Below are positions 44,274-50,882 of a stretch of DNA of 59,084 nt, piece after piece. The stretch's first letter is position 1. Each line of letters begins with the position of its first letter. This DNA is from a virus (taxonomy: Duplodnaviria > Caudoviricetes), in IMG/VR virus record IMGVR_UViG_3300047552_000148, positions 1 through 59,084 of that record; one strand, written 5' to 3'. A model generated the notes under the pieces. The model saw nothing but the letters and a program-made list of their open reading frames with translations. It was not told where the DNA came from and did no database searches. Position numbers and translations under genes: made by a program.

Positions 44274-44431
44274 TTCCAATCGTCCTCATCCTTAGCTGTA
44301 TCTACAATGCTTTCCTTTACCAAAGCAGAGATGCCTTTGTCTAACAAGAATTGCACCGTCTCAACATCACATTGCAGCAGCAGCACAAGACTGCCATCTT
44401 CTGTTTCCTGCACATCTAATACGTCTAGCAT
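44270..44431 (-). CDS. Small acidic hypothetical protein (53 aa)
   Basis: Hand-translated MLDVLDVQET...; overlaps neighbours. Confidence 0.6.
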   Translation of the reverse strand: MLDVLDVQETEDGSLVLLLQCDVETVQFLLDKGISALVKESIVDTAKDEDDWK

Positions 44432-45327
44432 CAGAATAGTTCCTTCTTAAGTTGTTTAACTTTCACGGTTGTGTATGTCGCTAGTGTTTTGAAGTTGATG
44501 GTGGGGTTCTTGTTTTCTCTAACAATGTTCCACATCTCTTCTCGCACTAGGTCGTAGAACACAGTGTGTAGTAGCTGAGGAATAAACTGAGAAGTCCAGC
44601 CATCACGGGCTAGAACAATCTTTGCGTACACCTTATCTACCAACGCCTGTGTTACATACTTGTCTACGATTTTCTCTTCAACGACTTCACAGCCAACAAC
44701 AGGCGCACCCATTGTCTTGATGTGATTGTCTTTGAATTCGTTGCTTACAATTTTAGCCCAGCATTGTCTGCCGTACTTATTCTTGTACGCATAGTTCTTA
44801 ATTACAACACCTTCAGCTACACCAGCACCATCTTTGATTAGGAAGTTGGCGTTGTCAATACACTTCACAAACATTTCGTATGTGCCGTTCTTGACAATGG
44901 CTACTGGTGCGATGAAGTGTAAGCCTGCTTCTGTCAACATACCAGCATAGTCTTCGTAAGGAACAAAGCATTCGTTCTTAGTATCGTAGACATCAAAGAC
45001 ATAAAACTTACGCCATGCATCATCGTTGTAATACTTTACTGTGTGTGGAACAAGCCATTCACCGTACAGCGTAAGCCACGGATAAGCATTGGTAAAGGCT
45101 TGGATGTTGAAGTCGTTCACCATAGCAGCCATGAAGCCAGCGTTGTCTGCGTCTAAGCTAAGTTGTCGGTTACGACTACCGCAGCAAAGCACACCACCTG
45201 CTTCTTCTTTCCACACAGAAGCGTTAGTTCCATCAATCTTTGGAAAGACATAGGACAGACCAACTTCAATGCCTTCTACTTCGGTGTTACCGAAGCGTTC
45301 AAGGTGCATGTATTTAATAAAGCTCAT
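44431..45327 (-). CDS. RNA ligase (Rnl2-like nucleotidyltransferase)
   Basis: KIDGTN, GEW, FYVFD, EGVVIK, AKIV. Confidence 0.82.
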   Translation of the reverse strand: MSFIKYMHLERFGNTEVEGIEVGLSYVFPKIDGTNASVWKEEAGGVLCCGSRNRQLSLDADNAGFMAAMVNDFNIQAFTNAYPWLTLYGEWLVPHTVKYYNDDAWRKFYVFDVYDTKNECFVPYEDYAGMLTEAGLHFIAPVAIVKNGTYEMFVKCIDNANFLIKDGAGVAEGVVIKNYAYKNKYGRQCWAKIVSNEFKDNHIKTMGAPVVGCEVVEEKIVDKYVTQALVDKVYAKIVLARDGWTSQFIPQLLHTVFYDLVREEMWNIVRENKNPTINFKTLATYTTVKVKQLKKELF

Positions 45328-45716
45328 TTACGTTTCCTTTCTTGTTTCTCTTGATCAGACTTCACCTTATGGCATGAGGTACAGAGAATTTGGTAATTGT
45401 CTAGCTCACAAAACATTCTGTCAATGTAAACATCCCAGCTTACGAAGCCTTGTTGTGTGTCAACAACAGGTTGTATGTGATCGACTTGCACATCAGCAGC
45501 AACAAAGACATTGGCACAGCTAGCACAGCGATAGTGCATAGCCATCTTCCCTGTCTTTGCATTCACTTGCCTACCAACAAAGGCTGTCTTCAACGCCTTA
45601 AACTTCACAGGCCAACGCCGTGAGGCAGCACGAAGAGCAGACGTAACAAAGCTCTTAAACCTTGCTTCCGTCCACTCCCCGCCGTTGCGTTGCTTAGGCT
45701 TAGAGGATTTCGCCAT
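45324..45716 (-). CDS. HNH endonuclease (probably a core gene)
   Basis: CASC, VDHI.P, QILCTSCH..K. Confidence 0.85.
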   Translation of the reverse strand: MAKSSKPKQRNGGEWTEARFKSFVTSALRAASRRWPVKFKALKTAFVGRQVNAKTGKMAMHYRCASCANVFVAADVQVDHIQPVVDTQQGFVSWDVYIDRMFCELDNYQILCTSCHKVKSDQEKQERKRK

Positions 45717-45903
45717 CTGCCAAGTGTGTTAGGTCAACCCTGCTATTGCGATCTTCTTCAAGCTCAAGCAACAAGTCTTTAGCTGTATCCACAGCATCGT
45801 CTAGTGTGACAGCAATGAAGTGACTCTCAAGCTGATTGCCTTCATAGTCAATGGTGTAGACAACAACAACCCAACCATTCTCAACACGGTTAATTGATAC
45901 CAT
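45700..45903 (-). CDS. Hypothetical protein (MVSINRVENGW)
   Basis: GAGG RBS before ATG 45903. Confidence 0.65.
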   Translation of the reverse strand: MVSINRVENGWVVVVYTIDYEGNQLESHFIAVTLDDAVDTAKDLLLELEEDRNSRVDLTHLADGEIL

Positions 45904-46351
45904 TGTCTTTGTCCTCTCCAAGTTCAAATGCCAACAAGAAAAGTAGGCAGCACATTGCGTGGGCGAGGTGACTGATACCTGTTTCGCTGTCATTCTTTTC
46001 ACCAGCACAGTAGGCGGCGAAGTGTCGTCCTGCCGCATCAATGTAACGGGTTCTAGCATTGGGAACCTTTCGCCAGTTATTTGGTGAATATTTTTTAGCA
46101 CCGTATGTCAGCACCTTCACCACTTCTGTCAGAGCTTTCCATTGCATCAACGACCACTGCGGCTTACCAGCATCAAACTTAACGCCTTCGCCAGATAGGT
46201 TGATACGTTGCCCAGCGTTAGATGGCATCACTCGCTCTGCTGCTGGTGCTGTAACACGAGCGTCTACGAAGTTGCTGAAGTCTACGCAAGTATTACAAGG
46301 CGCGTGTGTTGAGGATTGTTCAGCGTAAAAGCAGTCACGACAAATACCCAT
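45890..46351 (-). CDS. DUF5664 dATP/dGTP diphosphohydrolase-like protein
   Basis: KFD.GK, YGAKKY..NNW, D.ETG..HLAHA. Confidence 0.88.
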   Translation of the reverse strand: MGICRDCFYAEQSSTHAPCNTCVDFSNFVDARVTAPAAERVMPSNAGQRINLSGEGVKFDAGKPQWSLMQWKALTEVVKVLTYGAKKYSPNNWRKVPNARTRYIDAAGRHFAAYCAGEKNDSETGISHLAHAMCCLLFLLAFELGEDKDNGIN

Positions 46352-46352
46352 A

Positions 46353-46688
46353 TCAGCACATCCTTCCGTATGTTGGTGTGTCTTCATCAAGCACAATGTC
46401 TTTAGAAGTTTCATTCATGGCTGCAACTTCTTCCTCACCATAGATTTCTTGACAGCGTTCATGTACACGGTTGGTTAGCTCTTCATCTTCTTCCATCAAC
46501 GAAATGGTAGCGGCCATCATTGTAGCAACCATCACCATATGATGTACTTCTTCGTCCTTCATTGTGAACGGGCCATACCCACCAATCACAATTTCAAAAT
46601 CACCATCCCATTCTTTACCTTCAACAATAGCGGGACGCAAAATGATGGCTACATCATTAGGCTTTATCTGTTTACTGGAGGTTGCCAT
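46353..46688 (-). CDS. Hypothetical protein
   Basis: 111-aa acidic ORF. Confidence 0.7.
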   Translation of the reverse strand: MATSSKQIKPNDVAIILRPAIVEGKEWDGDFEIVIGGYGPFTMKDEEVHHMVMVATMMAATISLMEEDEELTNRVHERCQEIYGEEEVAAMNETSKDIVLDEDTPTYGRMC

Positions 46689-47376
46689 ATTTCATCCTTG
46701 TGTCTACGCAGGTACAACAACCTAGCGTTTTCAATTACACGTTCTTCATTACCATCGTAAGCGTCTATACAACGTAGATACATATCCACTTCATCAACAC
46801 TCTCTTCCAGTATCTTCGCAGCCTTAGCTGGTCCAACACGATAGAGTCCTTTGATGTTGTCAGCATCATCGCCTGTTAGTATCTGCATGTATAGGCTTTC
46901 AAGACCTTCCTCTTCAGTGACGTAGTAGCCTTCCTTCTTAACGAAGTTGTAATGCCAGCCTTGCACTTGCTTAAAGTCTTTGTCTACACTAACAATGATG
47001 CTTTTGTTTAAGGCTGCTGTAGCCTCAATAGCAATAACATCATCGGCTTCTTCTCCGTCTGATACGTTAGCACCCCACTGTTCAATGAGGTGCATACGCA
47101 GATAGGGAAGGTGTTCAGGTTTTGCAGATCGGTTGCCCTTGTAAGGCGCAGTCTTTGCAATGTTATGCCTGAAGTTGTTCTCCCCTGTAAGGAAGAGTTT
47201 CCACTTATCTACGTAGCACCCATTGAAGGTGTTGTCTACTTCGCATACAAGGATGTCAGCAATATAGTTGTCCATACGATGGCAAGCTATCTTCACTGGT
47301 TCATCCTTGCAGGCGAAGGCTACTCTGTACGTTATCAGATCAGCTAAGCGTCTACGAGTGCAACCATATGCTTCAT
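46664..47376 (-). CDS. 5'-3' exonuclease (T7 gp6/FEN family), interrupted after codon 10 by a net 5-nt insertion
   Basis: YKGNR, EADD, SVDKD, GD..DNI.G...VG; the N-terminus MKHMVALVDA lies in another frame behind an AAGGAGG RBS. Confidence 0.88.
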
Positions 47377-48050
47377 AGACCAGTACCCTCCTTCTGATTA
47401 CCATCATCAGTATGGGCTGCTAAATATTTAGATGCCTTCATTAAAAGTTCCTCGCTATCTTGAAAAAATCCTAATCCTCTATTACAGTTTGTACATAGAA
47501 ATTTACGAAGCATTCCTGTATCGTGATTATGATCTAAGTGTGTTAAGTGCCCGTGCATTGGAAGATGATTAGAACAAATTGCACAAGAGTTGTTTTGTTG
47601 CCTTAATCTTTCTTCATATTCCTCTAAAGATATTTTATGTCTAACTAGAACATATGCTGCCTTTTTATATCGCTTGTATTTTGGATTACTTTTATTAACA
47701 TGATGAAAGGCTATTGATTTTTTACTAGCACATTCTTTGCAATAGTAAGCTAATCCTTTTCCTTTTTTATTGTTCTTATCTTTATGAAACTCATCGTGTA
47801 ATTTAAGTTCTCTACAGAAAGAACAAGTCTTGTGTGTGTCTGTAACATATTGAACTTTAACCTTTTTTTCTACATTGCTTCTACTTTTAGCCAGCGTTTC
47901 TGACGAACATTTTCTACAAGAGTGAGACAAATAGTTTCCATGCTTGTTTCTTTTATCGTTTGTAAACTCGCTAAACAGTTTAAGTTGTCTACATGTAGAA
48001 CACTTTTTATGGGTCTCATTAAAGAACTGTGGTTCTCTTTTATTAGACAT
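47373..48050 (-). CDS. Endonuclease VII-type homing endonuclease with two N-terminal zinc-finger repeats
   Basis: CAIC...HLDHNHDTGMLRKFLCTNCNRGLG; very AT-rich. Confidence 0.9.
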   Translation of the reverse strand: MSNKREPQFFNETHKKCSTCRQLKLFSEFTNDKRNKHGNYLSHSCRKCSSETLAKSRSNVEKKVKVQYVTDTHKTCSFCRELKLHDEFHKDKNNKKGKGLAYYCKECASKKSIAFHHVNKSNPKYKRYKKAAYVLVRHKISLEEYEERLRQQNNSCAICSNHLPMHGHLTHLDHNHDTGMLRKFLCTNCNRGLGFFQDSEELLMKASKYLAAHTDDGNQKEGTGL

Positions 48051-48081
48051 AGCAAATCCTTTCTATATACTTTGCTAGAAA

Positions 48082-48110
48082 GGTATACCGAAGCAGATTC
48101 GCTATGTCAA
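48082..48110 (-). promoter_or_regulatory. Sigma70-like promoter TTGACA-17-TATACC for the HEG
   Basis: -35 at 48110-48105 and -10 at 48087-48082. Confidence 0.7.
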
Positions 48111-48143
48111 TCACAAAAGAGTTAATAAAGCCAGCAAGCTACA

Positions 48144-48347
48144 TCACTCAGGTTGTGCAAGAGGAAGCTCTGGCTGTTCAGGAACAACTTGCTTCTCTTT
48201 AGCAGCCTGCTCTGCTGCTTGTACTTGTGGTGTAGCTTGCTGATGAATGATGTTGATGTGTTGAGCAACAGCCTCGTAAGGCAGCTTACCCAGCCCAGCA
48301 AGGCAGGCATTCACTGTTTCAATGTGGAGGTCAAGTTTAATATTCAT
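48144..48347 (-). CDS. Small conserved phage protein (LGKLPYEAV)
   Basis: 67-aa ORF, TAATG overlap. Confidence 0.7.
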   Translation of the reverse strand: MNIKLDLHIETVNACLAGLGKLPYEAVAQHINIIHQQATPQVQAAEQAAKEKQVVPEQPELPLAQPE

Positions 48348-48760
48348 TACAGTACATCCTCATCTTCAGCAGACATAGGCGCACTTGCTGCATACGCCAC
48401 CAAGTCAGTTACAGTGATCTTCACAATGGAAGGACTGACACCAGACTTGTTCTTGTACTTCCAATCATATGTGCTAATCAAAGCTACAGCCTTGGAGCCG
48501 TTGCCAATCTCTTCAAAGATTTCATCACCATCTGTATCGAACAGCTTCATGGGCTTGCTGCTCTTGCAAGTGATGTAAGAGCCTTGGTCAGCCTTCTTAT
48601 CTTCACCCACCTTCACTTCAATGCCCATACCTTCCAAAGCCTCAACAGCTTTCTCAGACAAGTTGCAGAGGTCCATCTGGTATTTACCAGACATCTCATT
48701 CACTTTGTTGTTCTGACACCAGAAGATGGTGGCTTTAATCTTTGCACGTTCGTTGCTCAT
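48347..48760 (-). CDS. Single-stranded DNA-binding protein (T7 gp2.5-like)
   Basis: KYQMDL, IGNGS, acidic C-terminus; between polymerase and exonuclease. Confidence 0.78.
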   Translation of the reverse strand: MSNERAKIKATIFWCQNNKVNEMSGKYQMDLCNLSEKAVEALEGMGIEVKVGEDKKADQGSYITCKSSKPMKLFDTDGDEIFEEIGNGSKAVALISTYDWKYKNKSGVSPSIVKITVTDLVAYAASAPMSAEDEDVL

Positions 48761-48794
48761 AAAAGTTTCCTTAAGGTTGTTGCCTACCAATGTT

Positions 48795-50882
48795 TCAGAG
48801 GGTAGGCTTCTCTGTTATCACCAACTTGTTAGCTTCACTAATGTAGTAGTCGAAGTTTAAGTCGTCTCTATTATAGTCGCTAATGTTGTTGCAAATCTTA
48901 ACATCCCAATCGGTATCAATGCCAAGTCGTCTGTCTTCTCCACCAACAACAAGAGGTGGCATAATCTTTACAAGTTTACCACCACTATTGCTAATGTAAT
49001 AGCGGCAGATGTTCTGTTGTTCAATGTCAGTGTTGTCTTTTACCAACACCAGCTTGCTGCTGCGTGGTACTTTGGTGCGCAAGAGGAAGTCGTATTTGTT
49101 TTGATGGTTGCTTATAAATTGAGCAACGTCTTCACCACGTAGCATAGCTGCCTCTGCTGCCATCGGTATCACTAAGCCACCTTGGTTTTGATGCCAACCT
49201 AAACTCTCGTATTGATACTGCCCCTTGCGTTTCACTTTCCCGTTTGTGTACACAGCAATGTAGTTGTTGACATCGCGGATGTACATAGCGGAATAGAAAG
49301 CAAACTCAAGCTGTAGCCCGACCTGCTTCTGCCAAGCTGTACACACATCGTCATAACGCTGACGTTGATTACGTGGTAGCTTCACAGTTACACCGTCAGT
49401 GTTGACCTGTATCAATGTCAACCCTTCAATGGATAGCAATTGCTCAGCCAACAGGCACAGACTAAGCTGCCCATTCACCGTGATGGTCATGGTGTATTTG
49501 GGGTCGTAGAACGGGCTGTATTGGTTGTTGCTGTCTCCGTACACACCGTTCAACGCCAGCTTCAGCATAGCGTTCTCAGCGCTTCCTTTAGGTGTGTTCT
49601 TACGTTGTTGATACAGGTCTTCGTAGATGTTGCAAAACTCTTCACCTAAGTGTTCGGGGTAGACACGATTGGCAATGGCAATGTTGGGATACATTGAACT
49701 AACATCTGCGTCCACAATCTCATACTCTTCGTCTTCCTTCACAGCCTGCGAAGAAATGCTACCGTGAATACCACCAGTACCGAAGTCGAAACGGAATCCG
49801 TCAACAACAACATTCAAGTTCTCAGCTTCGTTCCATGTCTTCCAATAAGAGTATTGCGCTTCACCTTTCTTCTTAGCCTTCAGTTCCACCTTCTCTACCC
49901 AGCCTTCTGGATATTCTTGTTTGAAAGCAGCAACGTCTTCCGGTGTTGGTTCACCCTTGAACTTCTTACGCATCTTCTCCATGTGTGCAAACATCGACAC
50001 CTTACCTAACAAGTGTTCAGGCAAGTCAGAGAATACACCTTTAGTTTCAGAGATAGTTTGTTTAGCGAACCATTCAAAGACAGTGTTGAATTCAGGACGA
50101 GTGAAGTTGTAATAGTTGAATAAGCAATCGCCAATGTTAATTGTTGGTCGCTTAGTCTGATTCATTACACGCTTACCATTGTCATCAATCTTGTAGCAAG
50201 AATGTGGCAGAGCTTTCTCAAGCTGCATAATGAAATAGTCTTTACCAATCTTTGTATCGTTGTGGTTTAGAAAGTTACGGCGATACTTCTTAGTAAGCTG
50301 TTCACGAAAGCCAATCATTTCCTTTGACACGTTGTAGAACTGGAGCGTTTCTGTAACATCGTGAGCGTTGTATTTCAACAGCACATCCATCTGATCTTCC
50401 GTTAGCTCAGTACCAACAGGGAAGGGCAGGTCTTCGATGGTGTCAGACTTCATGTTAAATTGAAGCATCTTCAGCGAGGTTGCTCTGGCTTTGTTGTCGA
50501 AGTGCCATATCTTGTACAGATCAATCTGCTTCACGTACGTATCAGCTAAGCTAATCGTTTTAGCGAAGTCATCTTGACCTGTCTTGATCTGTTCCATTGC
50601 CAACTTGTACGCCTTAATGGCAACAGCTTTACCGGATACACCAGTGGCTTTTTTACGCACCTCTAACAATCCATGCACAACAGGATAGTCAAAGCTGATG
50701 TTGTTGTATCCAACGAGTCTGTCCTTAGACGCACGTAAGACATCAAGGAAGGCGTACACTTCCCCGATCTGATTCTTGCGAGTAGAGCATTCAAACAACT
50801 TCAGATCAGTACCGTCTTCTTTGATGGCACAGAAGCTGAAGATGTTAGGGAAAGTCTCTATATCGTACACCCAATCAGCCAT
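48795..50882 (-). CDS. polB: Family B DNA polymerase
   Basis: Exonuclease DIET and GYN..FD; DVSSMYPN, KLALNGVYG, NTDG. Confidence 0.92.
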   Translation of the reverse strand: MADWVYDIETFPNIFSFCAIKEDGTDLKLFECSTRKNQIGEVYAFLDVLRASKDRLVGYNNISFDYPVVHGLLEVRKKATGVSGKAVAIKAYKLAMEQIKTGQDDFAKTISLADTYVKQIDLYKIWHFDNKARATSLKMLQFNMKSDTIEDLPFPVGTELTEDQMDVLLKYNAHDVTETLQFYNVSKEMIGFREQLTKKYRRNFLNHNDTKIGKDYFIMQLEKALPHSCYKIDDNGKRVMNQTKRPTINIGDCLFNYYNFTRPEFNTVFEWFAKQTISETKGVFSDLPEHLLGKVSMFAHMEKMRKKFKGEPTPEDVAAFKQEYPEGWVEKVELKAKKKGEAQYSYWKTWNEAENLNVVVDGFRFDFGTGGIHGSISSQAVKEDEEYEIVDADVSSMYPNIAIANRVYPEHLGEEFCNIYEDLYQQRKNTPKGSAENAMLKLALNGVYGDSNNQYSPFYDPKYTMTITVNGQLSLCLLAEQLLSIEGLTLIQVNTDGVTVKLPRNQRQRYDDVCTAWQKQVGLQLEFAFYSAMYIRDVNNYIAVYTNGKVKRKGQYQYESLGWHQNQGGLVIPMAAEAAMLRGEDVAQFISNHQNKYDFLLRTKVPRSSKLVLVKDNTDIEQQNICRYYISNSGGKLVKIMPPLVVGGEDRRLGIDTDWDVKICNNISDYNRDDLNFDYYISEANKLVITEKPTL

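Follow-up and report, generated by a model that had tools for sequence, protein, structure and literature searches.

To our knowledge, efficient natural translational bypassing is confined to very few systems, namely gene 60 of phage T4 with its homologues and one yeast mitochondrion. In Escherichia coli, ribosomes stalled at stop codons can hop, and stop-hops between matched codons are documented for reporters in the sections of PMC5009743 and PMC6815119 that treat such events. The section of PMC5009743 on this topic knows of no natural in-frame stop-hop and has short-distance counterparts as long expected. Here we describe a candidate locus in a complete IMG/VR virus record of 59,084 bp (IMGVR_UViG_3300047552_000148), the whole of which was analysed and is called the window below; its replication module is similar to that of Zobellviridae-like podophages, e.g., CRP-5, CRP-6, and ICBM2. 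All window features discussed lie on the minus strand. A cassette carrying an endonuclease VII (EndoVII)/HNH-type homing endonuclease has inserted into the phage's only FEN-type exonuclease gene, right after the codons of a D-x-D motif. A mobile cassette, a UAG-C-Y gap, and a hop of the peptidyl-tRNA across that gap make up the explanation that we find best, and we hold it to be slightly better than an even bet.

The junction between endonuclease and exonuclease has the anatomy proposed for it in an earlier sequence-only reading of this DNA (overlapping ATG, AAGGAGG, MKHMVALVDA followed by TAG, body from a second GCT), as can be read from the sequence and its translations. The endonuclease stop TGA (47375..47373) overlaps an ATG (47376..47374) that lies 10 nucleotides (nt) behind a Shine-Dalgarno sequence, AAGGAGG (47387..47393), situated in the 3' end of the endonuclease gene; AAGGAGG is kept in all six junctions aligned, and AAGGA in the L103 lineage. 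From this ATG, ten sense codons (47347..47376) spell MKHMVALVDA, a replacement N-terminus (the leader) whose last codon, GCT, is the proposed take-off site, and in the leader frame (frame A) a TAG (47346..47344) follows directly. The exonuclease body (46664..47341) begins at GAT, the codon for the second D-x-D Asp, and has 225 codons up to TAA; it is read 2 bases ahead of the leader frame and stops at 46666..46664. Its frame (frame B) opens with GCT (47344..47342) and then GAT (47341..47339; ADLITYRVAFACKD...). Between leader and body lies the five-base coding gap TAGCT (47342..47346), the stop TAG plus CT, in which GCT 47344..47342 is the proposed landing triplet and borrows its G from TAG. 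The extra bases split the invariant D-x-D between x and the second D. Since the closest annotated phage exonuclease begins with MIALVDADILAYRIAFAC, and relatives with M-I-A-L-V-D-A-D..., the window gene amounts to the family N-terminus plus 5 extra bases. The gene that the open reading frame (ORF) caller placed here (46664..47407, MMVIRRR...RRRLAD) starts at an ATG with no purine-rich stretch before it, in agreement with the earlier remark that this alternative lacks a ribosome-binding site.

The gap is not confined to the window. Pattern scans and endonuclease-based searches yielded ten further contigs with a TAGCY gap at the same codon boundary, so that, with the window, 11 gap contigs are at hand (IMG/VR L037/L092, L086/L093, and L103-L105; metagenomes L094-L098), with eight distinct junctions in four lineages. 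Written as take-off, gap, and resumption, the junctions read GCT-TAGCT-GAY after MKHMVALVDA or MKHTIAIVDA (window, L093), GCT-TAGCA-GAC after MKHMVALIDA (L094/L095), TCT-TAGCT-GAY after MTRITALIDS (L092, L097, L096/L098), and TCC-TAGCC-GAT after MSQTVGIVDS (L103/L105, L104). TAG directly follows codon 10 in all eight, and every gap found uses TAG, while the metagenome pattern also allowed TAA, TGA, and TGG with any two next bases. The endonuclease, its TGA overlapped by the leader ATG, is present in 11 of 11 gap contigs, and the searches found no gap without the endonuclease; exonuclease bodies and endonuclease ORFs are all intact where fully covered. Conservation of the gap and its tie to the endonuclease, as anticipated in the sequence-only reading, are therefore borne out. 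Of the 80 best-matching exonuclease relatives from IMG/VR, 78 read through M..D-x-D without interruption and lack a neighbouring endonuclease; of the other two, L037 has the gap and L073 is truncated. A hairpin-plus-gap pattern gave no matches in bacterial genome contigs.

At the gap, the selected frame switches, with the leader frame before it and the body frame after it. When close pairs are compared, three substitutions within the leader leave the frame A residues unchanged and would replace residues non-conservatively in frame B (W>R, Y>H, H>Y), with V>I as one more leader change; just past the gap, changes are mostly synonymous in frame B (D>D, I>I), plus L>I at the next codon. This switch argues against a start in frame B of the kind chosen by the ORF caller. 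The cassette copy of the leader is intact in all eight junctions, whereas the displaced native 5' ends carry stops or deletions in the window, L092, L093, L095, and L096. Between L037 and the endonuclease-free relative L042, the leader keeps A-L-I-D-S with four of the five codons synonymously different (CTC/CTG, ATA/ATT, GAT/GAC, TCT/AGT). Window and L094 are identical at 29 of 30 leader positions, 37 of the last 40 nt of the endonuclease, and 4 of the 5 gap bases, compared to an identity of 0.43 at fourfold sites (P = 2e-10 for junction conservation), and junction against fourfold sites gave P < 0.05 in all 15 pairs. Judged by these substitution patterns, the ten-codon leader is selected as the N-terminus of the exonuclease, the role that the earlier reading had assigned to it.

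The interrupted gene is, by its predicted structure, a FEN-type 5'-3' exonuclease with a PIN-like fold. By tblastn, the body matches 1302 phage records annotated as exonuclease; its Pfam scores for 5_3_exonuc_N and 5_3_exonuc are just under the cutoffs (33.7 vs 34.3 and 26.9 vs 40). A family profile matches the window gene at positions 7-233, and its hits extend to Taq and T5 exonuclease. The best PDB matches (Foldseek) of an AlphaFold model of the intact L042 protein, with a predicted local distance difference test (pLDDT) score of 88.8, are a plastid exonuclease, T5 FEN (E 3.7e-8, template modeling score 0.64), ExoIX, and T4 RNase H. Residues 2-7 of this model form strand 1 and residues 8-18 the first helix. 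Uninterrupted relatives start with a hydrophobic strand followed by D-[A/S]-D-[I/L]-x-x-Y-R, and D7, D9, Y13, and R14 are invariant in 22 of 22 sequences of the family alignment. D7 is the end of strand E2-7 in the model, and the insertion site in D-x-D falls at the turn between strand 1 and helix 1. D7 may be the counterpart of the metal-ligand Asp on strand 1 of FENs (T4 RNase H D19, Taq D18); sequence alignments between the family and solved FEN structures begin only at about residue 73 and do not reach the N-terminus. Model and invariant Asp together indicate that the ten-codon leader encodes strand 1 and the first invariant Asp. A dispensable exonuclease backed up by a second copy was considered and rejected, since the family profile search found no second FEN-type exonuclease in the 59-kb genome.

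The element itself is well delimited, and we are highly confident of its anatomy and mobility as described here. Its endonuclease (47373..48050) is a free-standing ORF of 225 amino acids (aa) with an EndoVII/His-Me finger domain and two N-terminal Cys4 repeats; it matches Pfam PF02945 (Endonuclease_7) with 63.8 bits against a cutoff of 23.6, has Hpy99I (E 1.5e-10) and T4 endonuclease VII as its best PDB relatives, and has a G+C fraction of 0.30-0.32 compared to about 0.44 in the flanks. The endonucleases of other cassettes have 168 aa and one Cys4 (zinc-finger-like) module, with the L103 lineage also long; the length in the window is due to a second copy of the N-terminal Cys4 module. A promoter-like TTGACA-N17-TATACC (48082..48110), of putative function, forms the left end of the cassette, and TTGACA-N17-TATA[A/C]C opens the cassette in six of seven junction contigs (window, L092, L093, L095, L096, L097), the seventh, L094, having too little upstream sequence for the motif. 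A consensus promoter scan misses the window motif because its second hexamer lacks T at position 6. An inverted repeat, CCTTTCTA/TAGAAAGG, also of putative function, covers the ribosome-binding site of the endonuclease (48058..48083), and other cassettes have similar, imperfect inverted repeats. Promoter-like motif and repeat may provide regulated, low endonuclease expression.

Upstream of the cassette, the decayed native 5' end of the exonuclease gene is still recognizable in the window (48111..48144) as an ATG followed at once by TAG. This remnant ATG overlaps the TGA of an upstream 67-aa gene, as in endonuclease-free relatives; in L007, a homologous 65-aa gene ends at the start of the intact exonuclease. 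The native 5' end reads MTISLIDSD in intact form, then H and a stop, in L097, MTTALIDV-stop in L092, and MFALL-stop in L093, and it is nearly all deleted in L095 and L096. In L103 (1465..2022; also L104 and L105), MIGIVDSDI is fused in frame to the endonuclease, which thus uses the host gene's own translation start. These remnants place the insertion point immediately behind the D-x-D codons and indicate that the element came with a replacement N-terminus of its own. The sequence-only reading had taken the endonuclease to lie merely upstream of the exonuclease; this has to be corrected, since the whole cassette sits inside the exonuclease ORF with a duplicate N-terminus. Sequence shared among cassettes stops a few bases past the gap, and the ending of the cassette at the D-x-D codons in every lineage suggests a cleavage site there. 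The gap probably keeps the rebuilt gene from resembling the endonuclease target and may thereby block self-cleavage, by analogy with MobA (10.1101/2022.08.31.505936). Hpy99I cuts with a 5-base stagger, and to link such a cut to the origin of a 5-base gap is pure speculation.

That the endonuclease is a mobile element, as had been claimed from the sequence, is supported by presence and absence in closely related genomes. Comparison of L037 with the endonuclease-free L042 gives 92.8% identity for the sequence that starts at the last gap base and 92.6% through the upstream gene for a single-stranded-DNA-binding (SSB)-like protein, and between these flanks L037 has about 650 nt in place of 155 nt. 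Synonymous divergence (dS) for L092/L097 is 0.03 in the endonuclease and 0.53 in the exonuclease, and for L092/L096 it is 0.33 and 0.75; for L093/L094, the ratio of nonsynonymous to synonymous divergence in the endonuclease is 0.05. On a quick tree of the exonuclease, at least 2 cassette gains or losses are needed (4 by parsimony), with L092 sister to cassette-free L042. The endonuclease tree is compatible with one change of gap state (support 64), and endonucleases across cassette lineages share only 50-60% identity.

Sister cassettes occur in L106 (1420..2675) and L107/L108 (1450..2639), with endonucleases 44-54% identical, the same stop/start overlap, and a duplicate N-terminus. Their junctions are in frame and have no gap, reading MKALYDADIFCYR in L106 and MKALVDGDIVVFR in L107/L108, and L107/L108 also retain a native remnant upstream of the endonuclease (MRALIDG... 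in L107). A more distant EndoVII-type endonuclease (about 36% identity) was seen in L007 (1803..2291; also L008, L013, L040, and L046) between the DNA polymerase and SSB-like genes, with a TTGACA-N17-TATAAC of its own and the frames of its neighbours unbroken. The SSB-like protein just mentioned has 131-149 aa (window 48347..48790; also L037, L042, and L086) and an acidic tail, DDDDVL or EDEDVL, like that of single-stranded-DNA-binding proteins; it has no Pfam match, and its last codons contain the left recombination boundary of the L037 cassette.

In the proposed mechanism, the cassette would supply a promoter-like element, the endonuclease, a Shine-Dalgarno sequence, and fresh first ten codons joined to the body via UAG-C-Y. 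A ribosome would hold its peptidyl-tRNA on codon 10 (GCU in the window) with UAG in the A site, would not terminate, and would slide 5 nt, whereupon the tRNA would re-pair on the GCY triplet starting with the G of UAG and decoding would resume at GAY. The product of such a +5 hop would read ...VALVDADLITYR, with the D-x-D spacing kept, and full-length exonuclease would arise only through this skip. That leader and body are joined by some recoding event we regard as fairly likely; that the event is specifically a +5 hop, which is deduced from the sequence, we regard as about evenly balanced. A cognate re-pairing triplet for the peptidyl-tRNA exists only for the +5 move, and UAG is the only stop able to donate the G of a GCN triplet. 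GCU and GCA, the pair found in one junction, are readable by one tRNA-Ala through wobble. ARAGORN found no tRNA genes in the window, and a phage-encoded suppressor or expanded-anticodon tRNA was rejected for that reason.

Two further features go with the gap. The leader has exactly ten sense codons in all eight gap junctions and 7 in both no-gap cassettes, so three extra leader codons accompany the gap; in the native genes examined, the second Asp is preceded by 7 to 11 codons (7 in L007, 8 in L042, 11 in L040). With ten codons, a ribosome that is initiating would stand 27 nt behind another that has paused at UAG, and 27 nt is the collision spacing reported for E. coli in the relevant part of PMC6815119. 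The second feature is a start-codon hairpin, GUCUAUGA...UCGUAGAC (47350..47380), whose 5' arm comprises the endonuclease stop and leader start and whose 3' arm, codons 7-9, reads UC[G/A]UAGAC and stops directly before the take-off codon. Its 7 stem pairs are kept in six of six junctions, two of them changed to U-G, in the RNAalifold consensus, and single folds agree. The hairpin is found in all four gap lineages, in a longer version in L103, and is not folded in the no-gap L106 and L107. Ribosome queueing at the ten-codon spacing, together with this hairpin specific to gap lineages, may act as the stimulator. A direct role of the hairpin in driving the hop was rejected, since its 3' arm would be inside the ribosome at take-off and the hairpin could not refold during the 5-nt move. 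The sequence-only reading had placed a different hairpin at the landing codon; the window sequence allows it (8 of 9 pairs if a G-U is included), but the minimum-free-energy fold does not contain it and the other junctions do not conserve it, and RNAalifold over six junctions, together with single folds, gave no conserved structure at or after the stop.

Several observations weigh against a hop. The match between the take-off codon and the landing codon on which the sequence-only reading relied holds for the window, where both are GCT, and does not extend to every lineage: the pairs are GCU/GCU in two junctions, GCU/GCA in one, UCU/GCU in three, and UCC/GCC in two, so that in the two Ser lineages, which account for 4 of the 8 junctions, only two bases of the three agree, the third base co-varying once. 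Two-of-three pairing does occur in yeast mitochondrial bypassing, according to the passage of PMC5009743 on that system. The variation at the site (UUA/CUA for Leu, GCU/GCA/GCC for Ala) is also exactly synonymous in frame B and hence fits a -1 shift to D-x-L-A-D as well as it fits re-pairing. The stem of the start-codon hairpin shows no compensatory change, which leaves conservation as its only support, and five of the six single folds are no better than those of shuffled sequences. Synthetic stop-hops reach only about a percent, and no RNA run covering this stretch of the window is listed. The gap-free cassettes of L106 and L107/L108 imply that the element can persist without the gap. Finally, the dS contrasts point to frequent movement of the endonuclease, by which intact exonuclease bodies may represent recent captures, and intact bodies alone are thus no proof of selection after insertion.

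This last point leads to the alternative that survives best, which we nevertheless regard as unlikely: the cassette would be a selfish knockout that spreads by homing, with the leader ending at UAG, no full-length enzyme made, and recently captured bodies. Stop-hops are inefficient, and an endonuclease far younger than its exonuclease bodies (dS 0.03 vs 0.53) would suit short residence times. T4 MobA-type elements may be mildly deleterious parasites, as stated in the portion of 10.1101/2022.08.31.505936 that deals with them. However, new captures cannot renew the leader, which moves as part of the cassette, yet it is intact in all eight junctions, across cassette lineages with endonucleases of only 50-60% identity; in the leader frame, its changes are either synonymous or conservative, and the displaced native copies decay. 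The junction is, moreover, much more conserved than fourfold sites, and the genome has no other FEN-type gene.

If leader and body are joined, the ribosome might instead make a -1 shift at take-off, giving D-x-L-A-D, or a +2 shift, giving D-x-A-D, with one or two added residues. Both reach the body frame, in which [U/C]UA and GC[U/A/C] vary only synonymously, and an A-site stop is known to stimulate shifts (PMC5009743 and PMC6815119). The sites, C-GCU-UAG, U-UCU-UAG, and C-UCC-UAG, contain no slippery X-XXY-YYZ heptamer, however, and peptidyl-tRNA-Ala would have no pairing partner at -1 or +2. One residue separates the two Asps in all 78 uninterrupted relatives and in the no-gap cassettes, and the added residues would fall in the turn between strand 1 and helix 1 of the model. 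We therefore consider such shifts improbable, somewhat more so than a knockout.

Far less credible is the possibility that the ORF caller's gene is real, starting at a frame-B ATG (47407 or 47404) in the 3' end of the endonuclease and yielding a novel 22-residue N-terminus. The frame is open from an ATG in all four lineages and contains a V-L-V-Y-E or I-L-F-Y-D stretch loosely like a strand plus acidic residue. The start has no Shine-Dalgarno sequence, though, and conserved D/N-G codons of the endonuclease account for the ATG; substitutions in this region replace residues non-conservatively in frame B while being synonymous in frame A, and neither the invariant first Asp nor strand 1 would be present in native register in the product.

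Rescue at the DNA level has an equally slight chance. Slippage at short flanking repeats would delete 5 bases in some progeny, which would supply the enzyme. Such repeats (GCT..GCT, CT..CT, CC..CC) flank the gap in every lineage, and minor gap-free genomes would not show in contigs. Repeats of 2-3 bases are poor slippage substrates, however, none of the gap-bearing cassettes was seen to have a close relative that lacks the gap, and both source-sample assemblies carry it. Contigs from samples X3 and X4 cover parts of the body and none bridges the junction, so they offer no independent view. A sequencing or assembly error, the indel that the sequence-only reading had wished to exclude, is rejected for practical purposes and has a negligible chance, as the stretch 46400..48400 shows 0 differences from Logan contigs of two runs made on one sample, which is probably the source (word depth about 30 and 41), and the same gap recurs in ten other contigs from IMG/VR and other metagenome records.

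Near the cassette, the window also encodes an RNA ligase at 44431..45327, another small HNH endonuclease at 45324..45716, and, at 45890..46414, a protein whose N-terminal domain is that of a dATP/dGTP diphosphohydrolase; a DNA polymerase-like ORF of 695 aa (48795..50882) is without Pfam match at E 0.001.

Among known systems, the mitochondria of Magnusiomyces capitatus have gaps of 27-55 nt. They share with the window cassette short frame-breaking inserts that are tolerated via translational bypass, while their bypass takes place on mitochondrial ribosomes whose decoding is relaxed, has an unused codon in the A site where the window has a stop, and shows no endonuclease link, as far as PMC5009743 describes them in its mitochondrial section. 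Synthetic stop-hops in E. coli likewise rely on re-pairing on a nearby matching codon without elaborate signals; in the reporter sections of PMC5009743 and PMC6815119 they are engineered and of low efficiency, whereas the event proposed here would be a +5, frame-changing hop that is natural and conserved. Another proposed phage short-gap bypass has a Shine-Dalgarno-like element 5' of the gap, as in the window, but depends on a rare UUA codon and a nascent KGWG motif and has no endonuclease cassette. MobE in nrdA of phage Aeh1 is also a free-standing endonuclease inside a coding sequence, where sequence added by the element preserves function, in the account given in one part of 10.1101/2022.08.31.505936. 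In that account, MobE and other intron-less insertions leave two polypeptides that reassemble, whereas a single joined product is proposed for the window, since a ten-residue leader is too short for a separate subunit and must be joined to the body.

Full-text searches of the literature, with supplements outside their reach, returned nothing that describes hopping or bypass in an exonuclease gene of a phage. Only tentatively, and as somewhat less probable than the hop as such, do we suggest that this would be the first stop-hop to be both natural and obligatory, changing the frame by a bypass of 5 nt at codon 10 without the need for a nascent-peptide signal, and that it would have evolved so that an endonuclease cassette rebuilds the gene without its own cleavage site. 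If true, it would provide another cassette of endonuclease and gap, the second of its kind and unrelated to the first, whose gap is a minimal 5 nt and whose natural variants include gap-free sisters, and would support the idea that homing endonucleases recurrently recruit recoding as a self-shield. It would also be a compact and easily engineered system for dissecting the needs of take-off and landing. Gene callers mis-annotate such exonucleases, as in the window.

The analogy with the T4 mobA/gene 60 cassette, drawn in the sequence-only reading, is apt, with clear differences. The gap is 5 nt in the window compared to 50 nt in gene 60, and the window landing triplet overlaps the stop. The take-off stem-loop, internal mini-Shine-Dalgarno, and nascent-peptide signal of gene 60 have no counterpart in the window cassette, in which take-off at codon 10 makes a long nascent-peptide signal impossible. 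In the window, the interrupted gene encodes a FEN exonuclease, where T4 has a gene for a topoisomerase, the window endonuclease scores as Pfam Endonuclease_7 and compares with MobA by type only, and the window cassette carries a duplicate N-terminus where T4 has a protein split into two subunits with added tails. What the two share, within the sections of 10.1101/2022.08.31.505936 devoted to mobA and gene 60, is a free-standing His-Me/HNH-type homing endonuclease that forms one mobile unit with a non-coding gap, an insertion in a conserved replication-related gene at an invariant acidic or metal-site residue, a UAG right after the take-off codon, a gap that always occurs with the endonuclease, and insertions that mostly look recent relative to the age of the element.

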